A DNA stretch of 50,737 nt, filler included, from Circinaria calcarea (lineage: Eukaryota), in NCBI GenBank assembly GCA_051942165.1. It is 3 parts of 3 records of this genome, joined end to end, with 100 filler letters (N's around TTAATTAATTAA, not from the genome) between each part and the next. Parts side by side here need not be neighbours in the genome. Positions count along the whole stretch, not along the records: positions 1 to 16,878 come from JAVECS010000297.1; 2 more parts are not named here. One strand, written 5' to 3'. The notes below the pieces were generated by a model, which made no database searches, had not been told where the DNA came from, and saw only the letters and a list, made by a program, of their open reading frames with translations. This document shows, piece after piece, positions 882 through 15,800 of this stretch. Made by a program: the position numbers and the translations under genes. Numbering within the stretch: position 1 is the first letter of the stretch; every line of letters starts with the position of its first letter.

Positions 882-2854
882 CTAATCCCGTACCTTGACG
901 CGCAGTCGATGGCTCCCTCTCGCCGCAAAAGGAATAATCATATCGCGGTTCACATCTGTATCCCTCTCGCGGGTCGTTTCGTATAACTCCAGCGTCGGTC
1001 CTTCCTGACCTCGGTAAAGATCGTACTTGCGAATTATGGTCGCTAGGATGATGAAAACTTCCTGGCGCGCAAAACTCATCCTGTCAGACCCGATTCATCA
1101 GTTTCAATCACGGTAGATTCAAAAGAGAATTGGCTTGTCTCAGATGGCTAATCTTACCAGATACAATTCCTCGTCCCCCTAGCAAAACCAACAAAAGCCT
1201 TATCGAGCCTCGGATTTTCATTCTATCTCTGTGGGCGGAATTCGTATGGATCCTCGAAGGCCTCGGGGTTCATGTGCGCAATCTGTATGGTCATGATCGT
1301 TGGTGTGCCGGGTGGAATAACGTACTCCTCGCCGTTGCGCTTGTTTTTATAATCGATGGGCAGCTCGGGCGAGACGCGGGGTAGGCGCGAGACGATACCC
1401 GGGTGGATGCGAAGGACCTCTTGGACCACGGCGCTGAAGTAGGGAAGGTTTTCGACTTGGGAGAAGGATGGGATTTGGCCTGGGTCAGGGATTGCTTCAG
1501 CGAGCTCGGCTTTTACCTTCCTGAACTCCGCCGGGTTGGCGAGGAGCTGGTATAGGGCGGCGCTGAGGGTGTATGTTGTGGTTTTAGAGGTTAGTTCCAA
1601 GGGCGTTGCCGTTTGGTGGTCGCTCAAATGATACCTGTTGTGCCTTGACCGGCAAAAACGACCAACTGTGCTTCATGTGCCAGTCTAGCGTTAGAGTTCT
1701 CTTCTTCGGGAAGCTTGCTGTTCAGGACGCCTTCGAAGATGGTACTCTTGACCTGTTCTGGATTTGACGAGTTTCTGATGTCTTCAACTTGTTCTATCCA
1801 CATCTAGAAAAGATCATCAGTGCTGAATCGGAAGGGGGAAGTATCCCAACAATTTAGTTGACCTGCCTTTTGCTTGTTCCACGTATCAGTTAGAGAGGGA
1901 ATAAATGTCTTGATGGCCCATATCGGCGCCGATGAAATCAAAGTACCAACCTAGGGGAAGTGGCAAAGCGTGGTTGAACAAATGATAGACATCAGTAGCT
2001 TTCATGTACGGGGTAGCGTAGTCTTCCTCGTCTAAAAAATGAAAGGAATCGCCAAAGGCGTACTTGGTGATGACCTCGCTTGTGCACGCTTTGAGGACGT
2101 AATGCATGGGTAGGATCTCGCCAGCCTTACCGGCGGCTTCCATACGGTGAAGTAGTTTGGCCATGCTTCCTTTCATAATAGGTTCAAGTCTGTGAATGCT
2201 GGCACTCGAGAACAAGGCATTGATTGTATTACGGCGCCGGCGGTGCAGGTCGTGGTCTACGGTTGCGACAATGGAGTTCTGGGCTAGGAGTGGAAAAGGG
2301 TTAGTTGATATCCGCTTTGTAGGCCTGTGATCCGGCATTCTTACTTCCTGCTCTTCTGCCTGTGAAAACGTACTGGTCAGTCTTTCTCGCTGGACATGGG
2401 AAGAGCGGATCAATAAAGTCCGGGTCATTGAAGTGGACCTCGTGAGGGTTGATCCGAACAATCGGGCCTTGAATCCACGATATCAGTCAAAACTAAAGTT
2501 AAAGGCACAGGCCTTGGGACCAATACCATATTGTCTGTGCATCTCAGCGATCTTGCAGAAATATTGACCGTCTAACCAGACGTCATAGTAAATTTCGTAC
2601 CAATATGTCATCGCTAGACGGAGGGAGGAGGCCTTTAATGGGTTTTATCAAATACAAGGCAGTCGCTGGGTCTTCCTACCAGCCGGTTTGGGTCCTGGAA
2701 TCTTTGCAAGAGGAGACGAGATCACTTTGGCCAAAGAGTTAACAACATCTCTCTAACGACATGATTCCGGGATGCTTACGCCGGTATGCAAAAGACAGAA
2801 AAAGTAGGCAAGCGATGCTGCAATCGCGACATAGAGAGTTGGCAGGCTAAGCAT
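882..2854 (-). pseudogene. Cytochrome P450 (secondary-metabolite type), disrupted
   Basis: Multi-exon model: N-terminal anchor MLSLPTLYVAIAASLAYFF, SPLAKIPGP, GPIVRINPHEVHFNDPDF, ExxR (EVLR), PYEFRPQR, heme motif FARGTRNC. Lesions: frameshifts near 2790 and 1965, TAG stops near 1950 and 1223, an intron acceptor reading AA instead of AG near 1576. Confidence 0.9.
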
Positions 2855-4082
2855 GCCCTGATGCCTCCAGTCATTGAGGCCATGCTCGAGACTAATCTGG
2901 GTGCTTCCTCGAGACGTTTGTAGGACCTGTATGAAACTGGACATTGTTCCAGATACCACTTGCCTCCAATAGCATGTGCCAGAGATTGAGCAAGTCTTAA
3001 GTGTGGAGAGAGTTGGACGGTGCTCTGATGCTTGGGGGGCATGTTCGTTGATTTGTTTCAATGTGTACTCGCACTTTGCCATAACGCTGCAGCGTTCCGC
3101 TGGTTAATATCGAGTGTGAAGGCTTCCAGAGCTAGCCCATGATGCAAGCGCCTATCGTACATAATAGACGTGCCAATAAGGGTTATATTGAATAAGCATA
3201 CTTTGTAAATATTATCCAGGATCAACAATTATGGTGTTTAGCTAAATTTTGTAAGAGGTTTGTTATGTACGGTACCGATACATATCAGTAAGCCTAATAG
3301 CGTAAAGGACAGGTGGCAGGCCTACCATGCTCACGCGGAATCAAGAGAAGGGTCGACTAACATAACTGTAGAATTACAGTGAAGCCATGTAAAGCTAGGC
3401 TGGGGCACCCTCGCTGTCATTCCGCGCTTACATAGCATCCTCCAATGACTAACAAGTTTAGCTTAAAAACTCCCGCTAAGGTACCGCGCGGTTCGGGGGT
3501 ATTACACTGCAGTAGCTGCCGGGTAAGCATGGTAATAAGCGCGGCATGCCCAGTAAGCTTACTGCATTATCATGATGATCCGATCTGCAAAACCGAGTGT
3601 CAGCGCATAAGCATCCGGCATTGGCGGTGGCCCAGGTAAAGTTAGTACACAGTAAGCTGCTCGGTACCTGCACTTCTAGCGTACTAAAGCTTGCCGAAGA
3701 AATAGGCTAAATTTTCAGATGAATTTCGGCTGCCTTGATTGTAAATCCTACCGTATATGCTAAGAAGCTGGTAGTGCTAACAGCTGGGTCCACCGTCCCC
3801 CAGCCAAGGCCTTCCTACGGCTGAGATGGTGAGCCTTGTTCACCTATGTCATCGGCCGCGTATGTAGGATTGGACTAGGAACTAAATCTGGCCTCGATAG
3901 AAGACGGCGAAGCTGTCAAGCGATATGGGACGTTGCCGTTAGAGCTTGATGAATTCGTAATAAACATGGCTGAAGCCTTGACTTTTACCATGACAGCCAA
4001 TCTCCTCGTTTTTTGAATTCTGTCATTTGCTACTGCGATTTCCCTTACCGCTTCGTTTTGAAAGGCTTTGAATTTTCCGACA

Positions 4083-5866
4083 ATGCACGCGTATGCACAG
4101 TGTTTTCTAGCTGCAGCTGTCATCTTATCTGGGTGCGTGGCAGCCCCAGCCAACAAATCGACAGAAACGACCTGTCACTACTTGCCAGGGGACCTTCGCT
4201 GGCCTAGTCGTACTGAATGGAAACGATTGAACGAATCCGTTAGCGGTAGGCTCATCGCTGGGAAACCTCTGGCTCAGGCTTGCCATGGGTCCGACTTCGA
4301 CCCCGGTGCATGTGCTGAGCTTCAGAGAGAATCGACTAAACCACCGATTTAGTTAGTCCTACCCCAAAGCCAATCTGTGACCTATCCTGCTTATATCGAA
4401 ATCTTAGCTTCGAAGATCCTATTAACGTCATGTCGCCCTACTAGTTGAATAATTCTTGCAGTGCTTTCACGTCTCCGGAGCAAGCCTGTACGCTGGGCAA
4501 CATTGCCTCTTACGCCGTCAACGTCAACAGCGCAGATGACGCTGCCGCCGGGCTCAAATTTGCCAAGGAAAAGAATATCCGATTCACGGTTAAGAACACT
4601 GGCCACGATTACCTCGGCAGATCCACCGGCGAGGGAGCCCTGGCACTATGGACACACAATTTGAAAAACATGTCCTTTTTTAACTACACTAGCCTCGACT
4701 ATACCGGCCCCGCCGTCAGGCTGGGCGCTGGTGTTCAGGCGTATGAAGTTAACAAGGCCGCTGCCGACCACGGCCTGCGAGTCACAGGCGGTTTCTGTCC
4801 TACCGTCGGCATAGTAGGAGGTTACGTCCAAGGCGCCGGTCACGGACCTCTCGAAGGCATATACGGTCTTGGCGCAGACAACACGTTGGAGTTTGAAGTC
4901 GTGACTGCCAACGGCAAGCATCTCGTGGCCACTCCTACGGAGAACTCGGATCTGTACTGGGCGCTGAACGGCGGAGGTGGGAGCACCTACGCCGTGGTCC
5001 TCTCACAAACAACCAAAGCCCATGCTGATGGCCCTGTCGCGGGCGGATCATTGACGTTCAACAACACGAATGATGACGCGTATTGGTCCGCACTAGAGGC
5101 CTGGCAAAAGCGCCTCCTCGTTTTCGACAACATCGTCGGCTTCAATAGCTTCTGGGGCTTCACGAACGAGACATTTGTGCTCTACTCCGCAACGCTACCC
5201 GGCGCAAACGCATCCACCATGTCCGCGGCCTTTGATCCGTTTATCCAAGAGCTCAAAAAGCTCAATGTGGTGCATACCTATCAAACGAGTGGTAATTCGA
5301 CTTATTACGAGCATTACGCGCAGTACACCCCTGAACTGCCGTTCGGAATCTACACAACAAACTCGATCCTTGGCGGGCGCCTGATCCCATGGTCGACTGT
5401 GCAAAACAATCTGACGGACCTGCTTGGTACCTTCCGCAACATCACAACGGCCGGAGCCTACCCATTCCGAATCAACGGCGTCGCGTCCAACGTGACCCAC
5501 GCACGCGTCGGGAACACCGCCGGCTCCAACGCCGTGCTTCCTGCATGGCGGGACTCGCTTTATTGGCTGAACATGGACGTCTACTTCGACCCGGCGGGGT
5601 CGGTGGAGACGATTCAAGAACTTCAGGCGCAAATGAACGAGAACCAGGACCAGCTCAAGGTGCTGACTCCCGGAGCCGGAGCGTACATGAACGAGGGCAC
5701 GTTTGACAATCCGGATTGGAAGCAGGATTACTACGGAGCAAACTATGACCGGTTGTTGGCCGTCAAGAGGAAGTATGATCCGAACTTCATCCTGTACGGA
5801 CCTGCATTTGTTGGGAGCGACTATTGGACCGTGGCCTCGGATGGAAGGTTATGCAAGGCTCGCTAG
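4083..5866 (+). pseudogene. Secreted BBE-like FAD-linked oxidoreductase with one premature stop
   Basis: Signal peptide MHAYAQCFLAAAVILSGCVA; intron ~4352-4407; KNTGHDYLGRS (covalent FAD His), CPTVG, C-terminal YMNEG..YGANYDRLLAVKRKYDP. In-frame TAG at 4442-4444 (SPY*LNNSC, Trp expected). Confidence 0.88.
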
Positions 5867-6532
5867 AAGATGGAGAAGGGTTTATAATCGAACTGAATGT
5901 TTTTCTCCTATGTCTAGAATACCGGTTTTTTTGGTTATATTATCAAATCCATTGTATACACTGTTCTGGATATATATACATGCTTTTGTTTCAATGCCAT
6001 TTTTCCCACCCTCTTTCCCTTTACTTTTATTTCAATGCCTTTTTTCCCACCCTCTTTCCCTTTACTTTTAGATTAGTGACATAGCCAGCCTAAAGAATTT
6101 AAAATAGGTAGCGAGGTTCACGTGGAATTTACAGAGAACGTTTGCATGATGTTTTTATTCAGCGCTGCCAGTAATCCGGACTGCGAACTGGCAGTCCACC
6201 GTAATCGTCCAAAACACGTATGGAAACTTGCAGGTAAGTGGGGGCGTGGACTGGGAAACGTATACGCACGCACGTGCCGATTTTGGTTCATGTGCACGCA
6301 GATCTTTGATTCATTTACCTATTTATTAAATGGAATAATATGTAGATCCTAGACGGTCTCCTTAACGCTCTGGACTACTGGCGACCTTTAAATTTTTATG
6401 TCAATATATCTCATTTACTCGACACTCTGAATTGCAGGCATCGCGATGAACATATTTCTAAATGCCGCGAACCGCTTATGTTCTAACACTTGGAATAAAA
6501 CTGGAAGATCAGGATACGGCGGAAAACAGCCA

Positions 6533-7445
6533 TTACCATGGCACCTGTTTACCGTCCCATACCCACAGCTTCCCCCCATGAGTCTCTCTTTTGGCAACGT
6601 CGATTACCTTGATCATTCCCGTAACGCTCTGTTCCACGGTGATAGCAGCCTTCTCATACCCAAAAGCTTCAGCGCCGCGGTTGCCAATGTCTGTCTGAAC
6701 CCAGCTATAGACAGTGAGTGAAAAGTTACATTACAACTTCACCGACTCCTTTCGGACTTACCCTGGATCGATAGGAAACGCGATAAGCTCAGGCTCCTCA
6801 AGGTGGATTGCCTTGGTAAGCCAGTGGAGAACAACTTTCGTTGGTGCATAGGTGGCGTTTTGCATAGGGATCATGTCCCTACGGGATGTTAATGCCCGTG
6901 GCATATGTACGGGTTGCAGAACGGATGTCACTCACTGGATCACGGAGGTTAGCAAGGCAACGCCCAACATCTTAGGCATGTTCCAGCACACTTACCGTGA
7001 GGAATGCGGAACAAGAACCTATGCTCACCCACATGGGATTTTTCGACTTCTTGAGCAAGGGCAGAGTAGCTTGGTAGAGCCAGATGATGCCGTAGGTATT
7101 GGGAACGGTATGCTTTTGCATATCCTCGACCTTGACCTCGGAAACCTTGGGCCAAATGTAGGCGACCCCAGCGTTGGCAATGATGATGTCAAGGTGATCG
7201 ATGCCATTGGATGCAAGCTGCTTCACAGCGTCGGCAGGGTCAGTGGGGACGGTGGCGTCGATCTTGACGAGGAGGAGAGAGGTGCCTTCAGCCTTGGGCA
7301 AATCCGCGAGAACTTTGGAAGTTGGATGATTGGGGTCGCGGTTGGCGGCAATGACGGTGTGGTTTGGTTTGGCGAGGTAAAGCTCAAGGAGGCCCTTGCC
7401 AATGCCTCTGTTGGTGCCGGTGATCAGCACAACGGTTGGTGCCAT
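6533..7445 (-). CDS. Short-chain dehydrogenase/reductase (Nor-1/CitE-like), apparently intact
   Basis: TGTNRGIG Rossmann motif, ANAG, catalytic YAPTK, DPGWVQTD. Exons 7445-6997, 6878-6762, 6704-6533; the frame is open only if the first intervening sequence is spliced as a stwintron. Confidence 0.9.
6879..6996 (-). other. Spliceosomal twin intron (stwintron), [D1,2] and/or [A2,3] type
   Basis: Minus strand reads AC G GTAAGT...GCTAAC...CCAG TGAGT...ATTAAC...CGTAG G GAC ATG. Removing 6995-6935 creates the donor GTGAGT; removing the resulting 57-nt intron gives in-frame ACG GAC ATG. Confidence 0.82.
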
Positions 7446-7945
7446 AATGTGGTGGAATCGCAGAAAAAGGGAGGTAGGGAATAGTAGGAATTTGTGACGG
7501 CAAGATATAGTAGCTGAAGTTGCACGTGCATGGTAAGCAAAGCGCAGTCATGCTGCCTGGTGAGCAAACACGTGCCGATTACACTGCTTACGGCTCTAAC
7601 CAGCATTGGGAGTTTGGGAGTCTGCCCATTCAGAGGGAAGAAGCCGATCCATGAGTATATATGTACAGTGCAAAAAGGCGTGGAAGGAAACGGCTGATCT
7701 GCAGGGTCTCTCGGAAACGCTGTTTACGAATTTGCAGGGTCATACGGTATGTCTCGCGCTTCCCTCTATATCTAATTATATTTGTACTAAGCCGGATACC
7801 ATAGCCTTGGCAAAGTCCCCCACTCACGGGATTCTATGGAATACGCTCAACATCTGAGGCAACTTCTGAGGCTGACCACGCCATGTTATAACCTTACACA
7901 ACATGAATCCGAACTACCATTTTTTTTAGCATCGATGGCAAGGAC

Positions 7946-9007
7946 TCAGTCCTTCATCTTCCCCTCTACCGCTGCCCTTATTAAATCTGCCTGGGCTTTC
8001 AAAATCTCCTCGGACCCATCTCAGCTGAGCACAGTCAAATGTCCTTTGCCTTCCGCCAGGTAGAATCTTTTGGGCTGCTTAAACCTGTCAAACGCTTCCT
8101 TCTGCTTTTCGGGAGGTGACATGGTATCCAACTCTGGGGTGATCATCATAACCGGCGTAGCGTCGACCATCTTGAGCAGCTCCTTGGGATGCCACATTAC
8201 CAGCTTGTGATATATCTGCAGCGTGATACAATTGCGAAAGTTTGGCGCGCCTCGGTCGATAACTGCGTTCATGAAACCATATACTTCAACTCCTCCTGGC
8301 CCTCCGGAGCCCGCCATCCCAATAGGGTTCTCTCCCTTACTGTTGAATGGTGGTAGCGTGAACGCTTCATTGCCTCGCAGTTGCGATTGTCGGTCTTTGA
8401 TGAGTTGAAGAAAGGCCTTCTCCCTCTTTTCTGGTTTGTAGAAGCTCAAAATTGGGCATACCATCACGAGTGCTTTTACCCGGCGGTCGACTGCTGCCGC
8501 GCACGCACTCACCGTCCCTCCAAAAGACACACCCCAAAGCGTGATGCGACTCACATCTACATTTGATAATGTGGTAACGTACGTCAGGATGTCTGTCAAC
8601 TATGAGTCGCTCAATAATCCTAAACGGCCACGGGGAAGTGACATATTGATGGCTGATTGCTACACTTACCTACCAAATCCTCGGCTTGCTATAGAGGATC
8701 AATTTGATTTCTGGGAAGTCCATCGCTGTCCCCAATGCTTCGTGGGTCATATATAAGTGTGCTGTAGCCCATAGACTGAAAGCTTGCAGCAACCTCCGGT
8801 AAAAGCATTTCTTTGACGCAATTGAACTGCGCTTCTGTAAATTATGTGGACAAAAAAAAAGACTGTATAAACAGCGGGTATAATACTTACACCAGGCGCC
8901 ATGATAATCGTGGGTGCTCGGCCCTCGGCTGGGTAAAACCATCCTCGGATGGTAATACTGTCAATGGTCTTGCACTCCACCTTCTGATAGCCAGAGAGAG
9001 GGGGCAT
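7946..9007 (-). pseudogene. Alpha/beta-hydrolase polyketide thioesterase/transferase (Af380/DcsB-like), disrupted
   Basis: Three exons; FNCVKEMLLPEVA, YDPRSIGDSDG, nucleophile elbow WGVSFGG, PELD, KGH triad. Premature TAG at 8689-8691 (Gln expected) and TGA at 8021-8023; reading continues to a likely true stop at 7946. Confidence 0.87.
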
Positions 9008-9855
9008 GTCGATGGAGTTGAGAACAGTTTATAAGGTAAATCACGGCTATAGCCCAGAGCTTGACAAAGATAAAGGGACGTTAAATTGTAGATTTGACTT
9101 TTGACTGTTGTTTTCGAGCGTTTCTCGCCCATTGGCCAGAGAACCGGCTTATCGAGCTTATGCAGCTTACTTTATCTCCCATCTTATCCTTAACCTTGCC
9201 AAGAGTTATGCAGCAAACCAAGATTCTTGAAAGGGGCTAGATATTAAGTCGGAGGATTAATTCGGAGAATGCTAAACCACTGTCAACTGGCTTAACTCCA
9301 TACCCTAGGTATTGAGCGAATGCAAGATAATCCGTGCTAAGAAAGCTGACCATTACCCGTTACTTACGGCGCTACTGCAGGGTCATGCAAGGGCTAACAG
9401 GGTCTAACGGGTAAGCTTTTTAGGGAAAAGCCTTGGTTATGTCTAACCTCAAGTCAGAATTCCAGATGAGACATAAGGCTTAAAATAATCGGCATCTAAA
9501 GTTGAAAAATCTTCCACCTCGGAATCCTACACGATGTCATACAGAGTAAACCTAAGTGATCTTCGATAATAATAGGAAAATTTCTATGCTTCAAGAACTT
9601 GATGTGGCATCATCAGGATAGCCGCGCTAATGAATCATTCTAAGAGTAAACTACTGTTTGTAAGATGACTACCCAATTACCTAACCTCTTTTATAACCCC
9701 CGAGCCTGGCGGAGGTTGCTTACCATGCGCTCAATCATGGGTGCGAGGTTGAGCGTTGACTATATTTACACCAAGCGATGTCCTTTGAATTAGATAGGGA
9801 ATCGGTCCGGTGTTGAATTATATTATCTAACCTGGACAGATATCAGTCCTGCAAT

Positions 9856-12800
9856 ATGGAGAAGGCCTACCAAGTACAGGAGCCGGCCGCCATTGTAGGC
9901 TTTGCATGCCGACTGCCAGGTGGCAATACCACTCCACACAAGCTTTGGGAGTTCCTTGAGAAAGGAGGCGTTGCATCGAACAAAGTTCCAAAGTCAAGAT
10001 TCAATGTCACGGGACACTGGGATGGATCCCATAAACCCCGTACTATGCGGCCACTTGGCGGCATGTTTCTAGAAGAGATTGACCCAGCGGACTTTGATGC
10101 TTCATTTTTCGAAATTTCTCGGGCCGAAGCCATTTCAATGGATCCAAACCAACGCCAGATGCTTGAAGTGGTCTTCGAAGGACTTGAAAATGCAGGTATT
10201 ACGCTAGAGAGTTTAGACGGGGCTCCTGTAGGGTGTTTTGTTGGATCTTATGCATCAGGTCAGTGACGTGAAAGTCATGAGGAAAAAATAAAGGACGTCG
10301 TGTTTAGACGCAATCTAGACTATGCCGATATGCTGCCTATACCGCCGGTTTTCTCAGCCGAGCTGACGCTATTACAGCGGCATTCTATAGAGGTCGTGCC
10401 ACTCTCAACTGTAAAGAAGGGTTTGACAGCGATGTTGGTATGTTGGCGGTGGGCTTAAGTACCGAAGCGCTCGCTCTATACTTGGAGAAATACGAGGCCA
10501 GCGCATGGATCGCGTGCTTTAACAGTCCCAGCAGTCTAACAGTTTCTGGGAAATGTCCTGCGCTCGAAGCATTAAAGAATGAGATCCAAACCGCCGGTCA
10601 CTTCGCTAGGCTTTTGCAGGTCGATCTTGCTTACCATTCGGAGCTTATGAACATCATTGGCCAAGAATATGAAAAGCTACTGGACAAGAAATTCAATCCA
10701 CTCTGTGGATCTTCAGATATTTCCATGTTCTCCTCGGTCACTGGGTCTAAGAAGACTGATGCCACCGATGCATTATATTGGAAAACGAACATGGTCTCAC
10801 CAGTCCGTTTCAATGAGGTAGCCAAGGAGATGCTCTCCGAGCATAATGGTTCAAACTTCTTAATCGAAATAGGTCCATCGGGTGCCCTGGCGGGTCCTGT
10901 CTCTCAGATTAAGAAATCTTTGCCAAGCCAGGGCACAGACATCTTATATTGCGCATCTTGGTCTCGAGGCGTCGACGCTGGAAAATCTATTTTTGATGTC
11001 GCAGGCCGCTTGTTCATCGTAGGCGGTTCCATCAATATAACACAAATCAACCAACAGGCACCGAGTAAGAGTGATAGAAAACCTTCCACGATCATAGACC
11101 TTCCCAATTACGTTTGGAATCATTCTATCAAGTATTGGCACGAAAATGAGGCGAGCAAAGACTGGCGGTTTAAGAAGTACGTCCATCATAACTTGCTCGG
11201 TAGCAAAGTTCTCGGAAGCTCCTGGAGAGCTCCAAGCTGACGAAAGCTCTTAAACCTTGCCGACGTTCCATGGCTGAAAGACCATAAAATAGGCCCAGAT
11301 GTGCTGATGCCCGGCTCCGGATATATTACCATGGCTTTAGAGGCATTGTGGCAGAAGAAACAAGCAATCAATCCCGATGATACAGTCACGTCACCCAACA
11401 ATTTATGCTACAGGTTCAGAAACATCCGCTTCAATAAGGCTCTGGTGCTTGACGAGGGCAAAGAGGCCGTCATCATGCTATCGCTGACCGAACAGCCCGG
11501 AACCAAGGACTGGCATGAGTTCCGTATCTTTTCATCGACCGACGACGTTTTTATGGAGTATTGCTCTGGTCTGATCCGTTTTCAAGATCCCATTAATAAG
11601 CCCTTGGCTGAAGCCAATTTTGCGCCCCTCAAATACTCAATATCTGACCAATTGTAGTACAAAGCTCAGAGCGAAATTGGGTACGGCTTCGGACCCGACT
11701 TTTAGAAGTTGTTTAAGATCGAGTTAATTAATAGTCAGCGATACTGCCGCAGTTTGGTATCATTAATAGAGCCAAAATCAAAATGGTCTCCCCAATCTTA
11801 TTACCCTATCCATCCAGTATCGCTCGATGCATGCTTCTAGATAATTATTCTATCGTTATAAACGGGAGAGCGCAGCTCACTGAATGCCGTCTTGGTACCT
11901 TCGATAATTAATAGCCTTATTGTTAACAAGGTCGCAGCTAGCCTCAAAGAGGGCCTTTCGATTGCGAATTCAGAATATTCTGGCCGCGGTCGTTCTGAAG
12001 AAGCCAAGAGTTATTTTTCAAACTGCTCCGTCTATGATTCCAAGAGCGGCGCATTCCTCATGCAAATGTCTGGACTTCATTTCGCCAAGCTAGATATGGG
12101 TACGAAGGCCAATCCCCACACGTTCGACCGGATTTCTTGGAAGCCTGATATTACTTTCCACTTATCTTCCGGCGGCAAATCCAGCAATAAAGACCAACAT
12201 GATCATTGATTTGATCGCACACAAGAAGCTTGCTTTAAGAGTTCTGGAGGTCAACCTCGACACGATAGATGCTTCATGCCTATGGTTTGAGGCTGGCGAT
12301 GCGTCATCGAGAGCCGCTTTTCTCGAGTATGATTTCACTTCTTCCGACGCCAAAAGCCTAATCAGTGCCCAAACAAAGCACGAAGCTAAGAGAAACTCTT
12401 CGTTTCTCATGATGAACCCCAATAAAGATGCATTCGGTCTGCAAAAGACAGCCTACGACCTTGTCATCTTAAAAGTTGCGGAGAACGCGACGGCGAGCAT
12501 GGATAGGTTGGTCAAAAACCTTAAGCCGCTTCTTTCCGACGAGGGTCATGCGCTCTTCGTACAACGAAGAGAAACAATACCGGGCGTCGAGTTTGATAGT
12601 GGTGATCACTCGCCCGAAACACCTGGAACACCCGAAATGCTGCTCGAGTCTTCTACCCTTCCACCGGGCACGCCTGCGAGTTCGATTAGCGAAAATTCAG
12701 GATCCGAAAATCTTCAGAAGCAAAAGTGCCCGTTCTCTCAAAAGTAGAGGCTGCAGAGACGCAGTTTCTGGAGTTTGATCCGATGATTGCCGTTGAAAAC

Positions 12801-15800
12801 CACCCTTGGAACCCCAGCAAGCTGGAGATCCTCACGGCAGCGTCTGGTTTCGGCCCAACTTTAAAGATTGCCGCTGATAACAACACTTCAGCATACTTGT
12901 GTACCCCTAAAGCCAAGACGCAGGACGTCGAGTACCCTCGAGATCTCTGCGTCGCTCGTCTTGCGAAAGACACCCCAGCATTGATACCCTCCCTCAGAGC
13001 GGTCTTGGAGGCATCTGGATGGAAAATCACAGAGCAGACGTACCCGTTCTCAAACCCGGCCGCAGGAAGCGTGGTCCTGATTCTCGATGAGCTGTCAGCC
13101 CCTGTGTTGACACAAGCCAGCTCCGATCAGTGGGAAGCACTGAAAATGCTCATAAGCTCGGGAAAGAACCTTCTCTGGGTGACTAAAGGTGCGCAGTATG
13201 AAGTTACCGAACCAGATAACGCTCTTGCTCATGGCCTATTCCGTGTGGTTCGCATGGAAGATGCTAACGCCAAGCTCACCACCCTGGATGTTCAGTCAAG
13301 TACTAGCCCTGCGACTGGTTTGGCGATCGATACGCTCCTCGAATCATTGAGAGGCGACAGGCCTAAGACTTTTGCAGAGACCGAGTTCGCAGAGCGGGAT
13401 GGTATCCTTTATGTTCACAGAATCGTTCCGGATACGCCAATCAACAACTTCAAGAACGACGAAAGGGAGGGTGCCGAGCCTGTTCTCAGGAATATGCATG
13501 AGGTGGAGGCGGCTGTGGCGTTAAGAGCCGAGCGCCTGGGTACCTTCCAGAGTCTCGCATGGAGCGAAACAAATGTTTCTGAAGTTCCAGTAGAGGCAAA
13601 CAAGGTAGAGGTTGAAGTCGTGGCGGTGGGTGTCAATTTCAAGGTGAGTCTAGGGCTCCAACCCTAGGTATCTTATAACGATTGCACCCGTGCTTATCCT
13701 CGACAGGACGTTGCCGTGTCAATGGGCATTGTACCTGAGAATGAGTACACGCTAGGATATGAAGCTGCCGGCGTCATCAAGCGACTCGGGCCAGGAGCGA
13801 CTAAGTTCAAAATAGGAGATCGTGTTTGCTTTCTGAACAACGGTAGTTACGCAAATCGCCTCCAGGTTCCTGTTGGGCGTGCTCACTTCATTCCAAATTC
13901 AATGACATTTGAGGTATGTTGACTATATCGGAGACTACCGCGAATTCCTTGTCCTAATATAAATAATAGGATGCGGCAACTATTCCCTCAGTATACCTGG
14001 CTTCGATGTATTCCTTGTTTGATATAGCCAATTTAAAACAAGGTCAGGTAAGACCTCTCCATATTAGTCTAGAACTATCCTGACAGGCCATCAGTCTGTT
14101 CTTATCCACTCTGCGTCCGGTGGAGTTGGACTTTCGTGTATCCAGCTGGCTCAATACATGAATGCAGAGGTGAGTGTGATACAGCAAGAGCGAGCGAATA
14201 GATAACTGAGAAAGCGTAGATCTACGTCACTATTGGCACAGAAGAGAAACGTAAATTCCTTGCCGATAATTACGGTATCCGGCAGAACCGCATGTTCTCT
14301 TCTCGGAATATAAACTTTGCGAAGGAAATTCTCCGTGCGACTAATAATCGCGGTATCGACGTGATTATCAACTCTCTAACTGGGGAAATGCTTGATAAAT
14401 CGTGGAGAGTCTGCGCCCACGGTGGCACCTTGGTCGAAATTGGCAAAAAGGATATTATTGATCGAAACATGTTGTCCATGGAGCCATTCGACCGGAACTG
14501 CTCGTTTAGGGCGATGGATTTTTCATACACGAAAGATATCTCAGACTCGTTGATCACAAGGTTCGTCCTTTCTAGAGGAGTTTCCGTTGCGTGATACTAG
14601 CTTGATATTGACCTCTTGATAGGCTTTTGGACCAGATTTTCGACTTGGTTGATGCCGGCCATATCAAGCCCATCCACCCAGTCACCATATTTGGTTTTGA
14701 TGATATTCCCTCGGCATTGGCATATATCCGTAGCGGACGCCACATTGGCAAAGTTGTCATCTCAAATAGAGATAAGACCGATGTGCAAATCCCTATTAGA
14801 CCAGCAATGCGCAAGCTTGCACTCCGGTCTGACGCTTCCTATCTTATCGTTGGCGGCCTGAAGGGTCTCTGCGGAAACCTGGCCATTCACATGGCACAGC
14901 ATGGGGCTCGGCGCATTATCGTCTGCTCCAGGAGCGGTATCAGCGACGAAGCGTCAAAGAAGACTGTGATGAACTGCTTAGCGTATGGATGTGAAATTGT
15001 CGAGGGTAGAGGCGACGTTGCCGACATTGAATTCATGCGAAGAGTATTCAAGGGAGCGTCGCCCAGAATCACTGGTGTCATCCAGGGAGCCATGATCCTC
15101 AGAGTGAGTTCTCGTGCCCTTGAGACCTTTCATCGCAGCTGCTGACCGTGGGTCTTTCAGGACAAACCTTACGAGACCATGACCCTGGAGGAATACCACA
15201 CTGCCATTTACGGCAAGATTAGTGGCGCCTGGAGCCTGCATCGGGTGTCCCAAGAGCAAAAATAGCCGCTGGACTTTTTCACAATGCTCTCCAGTATCTC
15301 CGGTATTGTTGGCAAAAAGGGGCAAGCCAACTACTCGGCAGCAAACACATTTCTCGATGCTTTTGCCACGTACCGCCAGTCGCTGGGTTGCCGAGCGAAT
15401 GCGGTCGACCTGGGGCTGATTGAAGATGTGGGATACGTCGCCGAACAAGGCGGCATGGACAGTCACTTCAACAAGAGACAGTGGACACCCGTGACGGAAG
15501 GGACGCTGCGGAAGATCTTGAGCTACTCCATCCTTCAGCAAACAGCGCCGATCCACGCGAGCAGCAGCGCGTAGCTGATCACCGGCATCGGGTTCCCCCT
15601 CCCAGACGATTCGGACCTGATCCGAGAAGCGAGATTCGGCTATCTCTTCGCCCAAAGCGCATCGAGCGGAGCCGGCAAGGAGGGCAGCCAGGGCGACCAG
15701 ACTATCCGCGCCTTCCTGATGATGCACAAGTCCGGGGCGGACAAAGCGGCGCTGGTCAAAGTGGGAGTCGAGCTGATGGCGGCCCAGTTCACCAAAATCC

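Follow-up and report, generated by a model that had tools for sequence, protein, structure and literature searches.

A predicted dual-route spliceosomal twin intron in a short-chain reductase gene of Circinaria calcarea

A minus-strand short-chain dehydrogenase (SDR) gene in the stretch of Circinaria calcarea DNA analyzed here (50,737 bases in all, referred to below as the window) is interrupted at 6996-6878 by what is very probably a genuine spliceosomal twin intron (stwintron), an intervening sequence that would have to be removed by two consecutive U2 splicing reactions. In the available text of PMC5587772, an alternatively spliced [D1,2]/[A2,3] stwintron consists of two terminally overlapping U2 introns with a G at both flanking exonic positions, and a first-pass annotation of this DNA had proposed such a dual-route element in the SDR gene. 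That reading holds up well, as the sequence-level features of the class are all present and two-step removal alone restores the conserved protein. Both the kind of element and its position are known already from the same protein family in Xylariales, and no new mechanism is involved. Stwintrons directly support intron definition and sequential splicing in filamentous fungi, and their dual-route form has been proposed as the intermediate through which introns shift by one nucleotide. The window adds a well-supported example, in what is probably a polyketide-cluster reductase gene.

The predicted SDR gene runs from an ATG at 7445-7443 to a TAA stop at 6535-6533 (Table 1). Exon 1 matches the Pfam family adh_short (PF00106) with an E value of 4.8e-16, and a protein search with exon 1 returned 563 homologues. 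The match to the Rossmann-fold N-terminal domain is accompanied by a YxxxK motif, as in members of the SDR family, and the best solved relatives of the product are carbonyl reductase/sniffer-like SDRs. As translated, the product is a Nor-1-like/sniffer-like short-chain reductase of 245 aa in which the Ser...YxxxK region is intact. The second intron of the gene is an ordinary one, and its position is common to L001, L005, and L007/L008 among the related loci described below and absent from L002. The gene lies among typical polyketide-cluster genes (window 1886-13667), and the reductase probably serves this cluster as a tailoring enzyme. A 41-nt tandem duplication, in two copies that are 95% identical, occupies 5983-6064 in the spacer that separates the SDR gene, at its 3′ end, from the BBE-oxidase gene.

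Table 1. Positions in the window of the predicted SDR gene, its proposed stwintron, and neighboring genes
Feature	Position	Strand	Remarks
Exon 1	6997-7445	-	149 codons, then bases 1 and 2 of the Thr150 codon; translation start
Upstream flanking G	6996	-	[D1,2]: first base of external donor; [A2,3]: last exonic base (Thr third base)
5′ U2 unit, 61 nt	6935-6995	-	Internal intron of the [D1,2] route
Shared G	6935	-	Last base of 5′ unit acceptor and first base of 3′ unit donor
3′ U2 unit, 57 nt	6879-6935	-	Internal intron of the [A2,3] route
Downstream flanking G	6878	-	[D1,2]: exonic, third base of Thr150; [A2,3]: last base of rebuilt CAG acceptor
Exon 2	6762-6877	-	DMIPMQNATYAPTK...FPIDPG; contains the YxxxK motif (YAPTK)
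Ordinary second intron, 57 nt	6705-6761	-	GTAAGT...TATAG
Exon 3	6533-6704	-	Ends in the stop TAA
Weak donor GTGGGT	7027-7032	-	Used by the public 233-aa annotation P0005
P450 fragment ORF	1886-2482	-	
FAD/BBE oxidase	4445-5866	+	
Alpha/beta hydrolase	8021-8599	-	
PKS acyltransferase domain	10308-11240	+	
HRPKS sdrA-like NAD-binding domain	12690-13667	+	

The first-pass annotation described two intron units that share G6935, each with a branch site of its own (GCTAAC and ATTAAC), and a spare G at 6996 and at 6878, and we find each of these where it had been placed. The 5′ unit has the donor GTAAGT at 6995-6990, the branch-site-like GCTAAC at 6953-6948, and the acceptor CAG at 6937-6935, while the 3′ unit has the donor GTGAGT at 6935-6930, the branch-site-like ATTAAC at 6893-6888, and the acceptor TAG at 6881-6879. 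G6878 is followed by GAC ATG (Asp-Met) and then by the YAPTK motif. The interruption begins with GGT, and the internal intron of the [D1,2] reading is canonical and has the required length of at least 42 nt. G6996 together with TGAGT rebuilds a GTGAGT donor that has its own ATTAAC and TAG downstream. Because the units overlap at G6935 and the exonic flanks are both G (G6996 and G6878), the arrangement is that of the [D1,2]/[A2,3] class.

In the [D1,2] route, the 61-nt unit at 6995-6935 would be excised in the first step, which would join G6996 to TGAGT to form the donor GTGAGT, and the 57-nt external intron (G6996 + 6934-6879) would be excised in the second. In the [A2,3] route, the 57-nt unit at 6935-6879 would be excised first, joining ..CCA to G6878 to form the acceptor CAG, and the 61-nt external intron (6995-6936 + G6878) would follow. 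When we spliced the gene by script, both routes gave an identical mRNA and the same 245-aa product with the same Thr-Asp-Met junction, exactly as had been claimed for removal of 6995-6935 first or 6935-6879 first. Removing 6995-6879 (117 nt) in one step instead gave ...AFLT and, beyond it, an out-of-frame reading interrupted by stops, so the earlier statement that a single intron of this length frameshifts the gene is correct. The conserved coding sequence is kept intact only if removal takes two steps. As far as the sequence can tell, both routes are open, and we infer that splicing in this organism would proceed in two steps, possibly by both routes.

To search the window we used the published [D1,2] pattern, GGTRWGY..DYTRAY..HAGTRWGY..DYTRAY..HAG (PMC5587772). 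On both strands of the 50,737 bases it matches at the SDR locus only, with two starts, 7029 and 6996, and a common end at 6879, and in 100 dinucleotide-preserving shuffles it matched 0.05 times on average and once at most. The start at 7029 falls on Trp-Val-Ser codons that mimic a donor. This mimic is GGTGAGC at 7023-7029 of the window and GGTAAGC at 1917-1923 of L001. If the site at 7029 were used, an in-frame product without 11 residues would result, and it is possible that the mimic is a decoy or an alternative 5′ site.

The first-pass annotation had named a different acceptor or a micro-exon as the outcomes that would tell against a stwintron, and we enumerated such alternatives between 7100 and 6800 in the window. 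None of the canonical models yields the 245-aa product. Single introns of the form GTNNGN..HAG numbered 27, of which 4 are in frame, all with deletions (212-233 aa); single introns with any GT/GC..AG ends numbered 150, of which 22 are in frame; and two introns with a micro-exon between them gave 12 combinations under strict and 1009 under permissive settings. The count of models yielding the 245-aa product was zero in each set. A separate candidate, a repeated hairpin-forming "sister" stwintron or introner-like element of the type found in Hypoxylaceae, was rejected: no 14-mer of the element recurs elsewhere in the 50.7-kb window, and its RNA fold (-32.3 kcal/mol, z = 0.05) is no more stable than that of shuffles.

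The two-step product was then compared with protein relatives. In global alignments with eight full-length relatives, it aligns in one ungapped block with seven (P0006, P0047, P0058, P0071, P0079, P0092, and P0111), and with the eighth, P0023, there is one indel only, of 1 residue, at residue 79 and well away from the junction. The product is identical to P0006 at 214 of 245 residues. P0006, P0023, P0092, and P0111 (245/246 aa) lie on contigs of 938-1161 nt, which we infer would fit intron-less transcripts. For a wider survey of the junction, the best 120 of the 563 exon-1 homologues were each aligned to the two-step product. Fifty of the 120 span the junction in these alignments, 44 of them with a length of at least 200 aa. 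The junction is ungapped in 20 of the 44; the other 24 have indels of 3-14 residues (-7 to +14) exactly there, so that roughly one in two full-length public models of relatives is distorted at the stwintron site. Among the 70 ORF calls that do not span the junction, 55 have Val (GTN) as the next residue once the Thr/Glu-equivalent codon has been read, which fits a GT donor at that phase. Three truncated ORF calls stop immediately after the Thr-equivalent codon. A protein search with the 57-aa frame that runs from the 3′ unit into exon 2 found five fragments, and only two of them reach upstream of exon 2, a number too small for sampling the base after the acceptor across species. The labels of the distorted or truncated models span Leotiomycetes, Sordariomycetes, Eurotiomycetes, Dothideomycetes, and Lecanoromycetes, with lineages checked for five species. 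As read from these alignments, the distorted models point to an intron that is beyond gene finders and are not proof of a stwintron in each case.

One of these public models bears on the window directly. P0005 (233 aa) is the window product minus the 12 residues WVSIGSCSAFLT and is otherwise identical, an annotation failure in the part of the active-site region that surrounds the conserved Gly-Ser. If this deposited model were right, a single 154-nt intron would run from 7032 (GTGGGT) to 6879 (TAG). Such an intron keeps the frame, translates exactly to P0005, and is one of only four in-frame GTNNGN..HAG single introns among the 27 tested. Among the residues it deletes, however, are G143 and S144, neither of which varies in any of 30 aligned sequences. 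All 20 ungapped full-length relatives have the whole stretch, and in a solved SDR its counterpart by alignment is the strand that bears the Ser. Its donor GTGGGT does not fit GTRWGY, whereas a perfect GTAAGT lies 37 nt downstream. We consider it very unlikely that the public annotation is right. P0005 carries the same source label as P0004. One of the two is identical to window exon 1 over the covered 93% of the query and the other is 94% identical, and their read-throughs into the intron start are nearly the same (VSVPEHA vs VSVLEHA). The pair points to a recent duplication or to the presence in the assembly of a second genome that is closely related, and the counterpart probably bears the same stwintron.

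A second alternative is that the 117 nt are removed as one ordinary intron, in which case the gene would be a frameshifted pseudogene or the extra base an assembly error. The outer signals, GTAAGT...TAG, are good, and an annotated relative, P0078 (labeled Daldinia eschscholtzii, 176 aa), is exactly this model, with LT followed by a frameshifted exon 2. Against this model, exons 2 and 3 are open and conserved, as the 214 of 245 residues identical to P0006 show, and the same extra base occurs in L001 and in L002/L003/L081, which come from separate assemblies. The one-intron model also leaves the conserved internal AG/GT hybrid unexplained, and we regard it as extremely unlikely.

The remaining alternatives are still less credible. 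P0008 (labeled Amorphotheca resinae, 251 aa) has VMTSVL inserted, and its insertion and length are reproduced exactly on the minus strand of the window by a micro-exon model with an intron at 6991-6931 (GTGTGC..GAG), a 13-nt micro-exon at 6930-6918, and a 39-nt GC-AG intron at 6917-6879. That second intron is shorter than the 42-nt minimum, and the GAG acceptor and GCAACC donor lie outside the motifs given in the available text of PMC5587772. None of the 20 ungapped relatives, among them P0006 (89% identity), has the VMTSVL insertion. Such a construct is biologically implausible and is the usual result when a gene finder has to recover the frame, and we give it next to no weight. Equally little weight falls on a single-step 118-nt intron with a non-canonical end, which would yield the correct product but would have to end in GG...AG or GT...GG, neither of which is to our knowledge an accepted U2 signal, and which offers no reason for a mid-intron acceptor and donor hybrid with a second branch-site-like motif to be kept in lineages whose intron sequences are otherwise unalignable.

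The first-pass annotation had suggested looking for the same architecture in orthologous SDRs. A metagenome scan with the exon-1 alignment left 80 loci, of which L001-L005 and L010 were read directly and L006-L009, L011, and L017 by tblastn; the remaining 69 have listed identities of 28-38%. The DNA compared comes from three independent orthologous lineages (L001; L002/L003/L081; L005), and the architecture recurs in the first two and, more weakly, in L005. The common layout is G/GT..branch site..AG, a shared G, and T(A/G)AG..AG/G (slashes outside parentheses mark boundaries). L001 (83% aa identity) has units of 72+56 nt with TAG/TGAGTG between them and CAG/G before Asp-Met, and L002 (63% aa; one lineage with L003 and L081/L082) has units of 62+59 nt with TAG/TAAGG and TAG/G; in both of these, one-step removal frameshifts the gene. 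L005 (50% aa) has units of 53+95 nt with TAG/TGAGTT and TAG/G. The two routes give identical products in L001, L002, L003, and L005 (acceptor at index 509). L005 is nonetheless ambiguous, as its 3′ unit has no DYTRAY and two canonical single introns keep the frame at +5 or +10 residues.

When the four intervening sequences were aligned with MAFFT, only the window and L001 gave a sensible alignment. The intron sequences are otherwise unalignable, and therefore the features they share would be signals and not sequence related by descent. The distant fungal paralogues L006-L009 (36-45%) have no intron at the site and read straight through, and therefore the residues at the site are coding and contiguous; the solved homologue 3wxb aligns across the site too. 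L010 is a pseudogene with in-frame stops. In L004 (57%), a GTATGC donor stands one base upstream, in phase 2 (1620-1676), and the contig ends inside the intron, before the acceptor. A donor at this position is what would be expected, under the one-nucleotide intron-shift model, once the [D1,2] internal intron had been lost. Scans of genome contigs gave only L081/L082 (= L002) and distant matches of 23-36% in records with bacterial titles. The L081/L082 record is titled as a Deltaproteobacteria MAG and bears a fungal-type, intron-containing SDR, and the stretch of L081 that was read (1880-2400) is identical to L002. It looks like a eukaryotic contig that was binned into a bacterial MAG.

This case suggests that the position, although published for Hypoxylaceae only, is conserved much more widely. 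We propose, tentatively and judging it nearly as likely to be right as wrong, that the position is ancient and predates several class splits in Pezizomycotina, with the dual-route form kept in some lineages and decayed elsewhere to canonical introns one base apart. If this is true, the one-nucleotide intron-shift model would have in the SDR family a second natural test that is independent, and the position would flag dozens of public gene models as mis-annotated.

The first-pass annotation knew of no report for this gene, and for the gene family that does not stand. PMC9024468, in its available text, lists the [D1,2] stwintrons no-007, no-061, and no-301 at "the very same position" in three SDR paralogues (pfam00106; 243, 250, and 246 aa) of Hypoxylon sp. 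CO27-5. In the available part of its Table S1, all three (there no-7, no-61, and no-301) are in phase two and have RNA-read or cDNA accessions, "[A2,3] YES" is entered for no-7 and no-61 and "NO" for no-301, and no-61 and no-301 are marked as present in most of the listed Hypoxylaceae species. The GenBank accessions that the table names for the no-61 cDNA and the no-301 intermediate are OL672707 and OL624535. The terms Leotiomycetes, Eurotiomycetes, and Lecanoromycetes are absent from PMC9024468. In the accessible text of the stwintron literature, which takes in few subscription journals, the position is not mentioned outside Hypoxylaceae and Xylaria; no SDR passage was found in the available portion of PMC12403724, and in that of PMC8469720 mention of SDRs is limited to a sister stwintron, HCOc021A, in a pseudogenised SDR gene.

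Among known systems, the closest in splicing behavior is the Trichoderma reesei DHA1 antiporter gene dhaoS, for which the intermediates of both routes have been sequenced (Fekete et al. 2017; available text of PMC5587772). As there, the U2 units in the window overlap by one G, both flanks are G, two routes would lead to an identical mRNA, and the [D1,2] reading splits a codon in phase 2. The automatic annotation is wrong at the site in both cases, and the same text states that auto-annotation of [D1,2] stwintrons always is. The window gene differs in encoding an SDR and not a membrane transporter and in having units of 61+57 nt as opposed to 66+88 nt; and whereas both intermediates were sequenced in T. 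reesei, the window stwintron is predicted from its sequence. The Helminthosporium solani alternative oxidase gene (Ag et al. 2015, as cited in the available text of PMC5587772) holds the first described [D1,2] stwintron overlapping an [A2,3] stwintron, which is of the same dual-route kind as here in a different gene.

The closest in gene and position are the Hypoxylon SDR stwintrons. Their published 15-nt exon flanks, as far as given, translate to AGCIQ/NLTP, AGKLE/EQPQV, and AAWLE/NMIP. By our reading these would fall in the same column as AFLT/DMIP in the window, a placement based on the translated 15-nt flanks rather than a full-gene alignment. P0109, a 250-aa Hypoxylon protein among our homologues, has GKIE/EQPP at that column. 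In the available text the Hypoxylon elements share with the window stwintron the protein family, the codon position between the Ser region and YxxxK, phase two, and a length within 114-211 nt, and the no-301 gene likewise has two intervening sequences with the stwintron first. Hypoxylon belongs to Xylariales (Sordariomycetes), whereas the nearest named relatives of the window protein are labeled Lecanoromycetes and Leotiomycetes. Unlike the dual-route element proposed here, no-301 has an A after its acceptor in the listed data and can use [D1,2] only. Because no-301 has a listed splicing intermediate in spite of that A, [D1,2] is probably the route that the Hypoxylon genes and the window gene have conserved.
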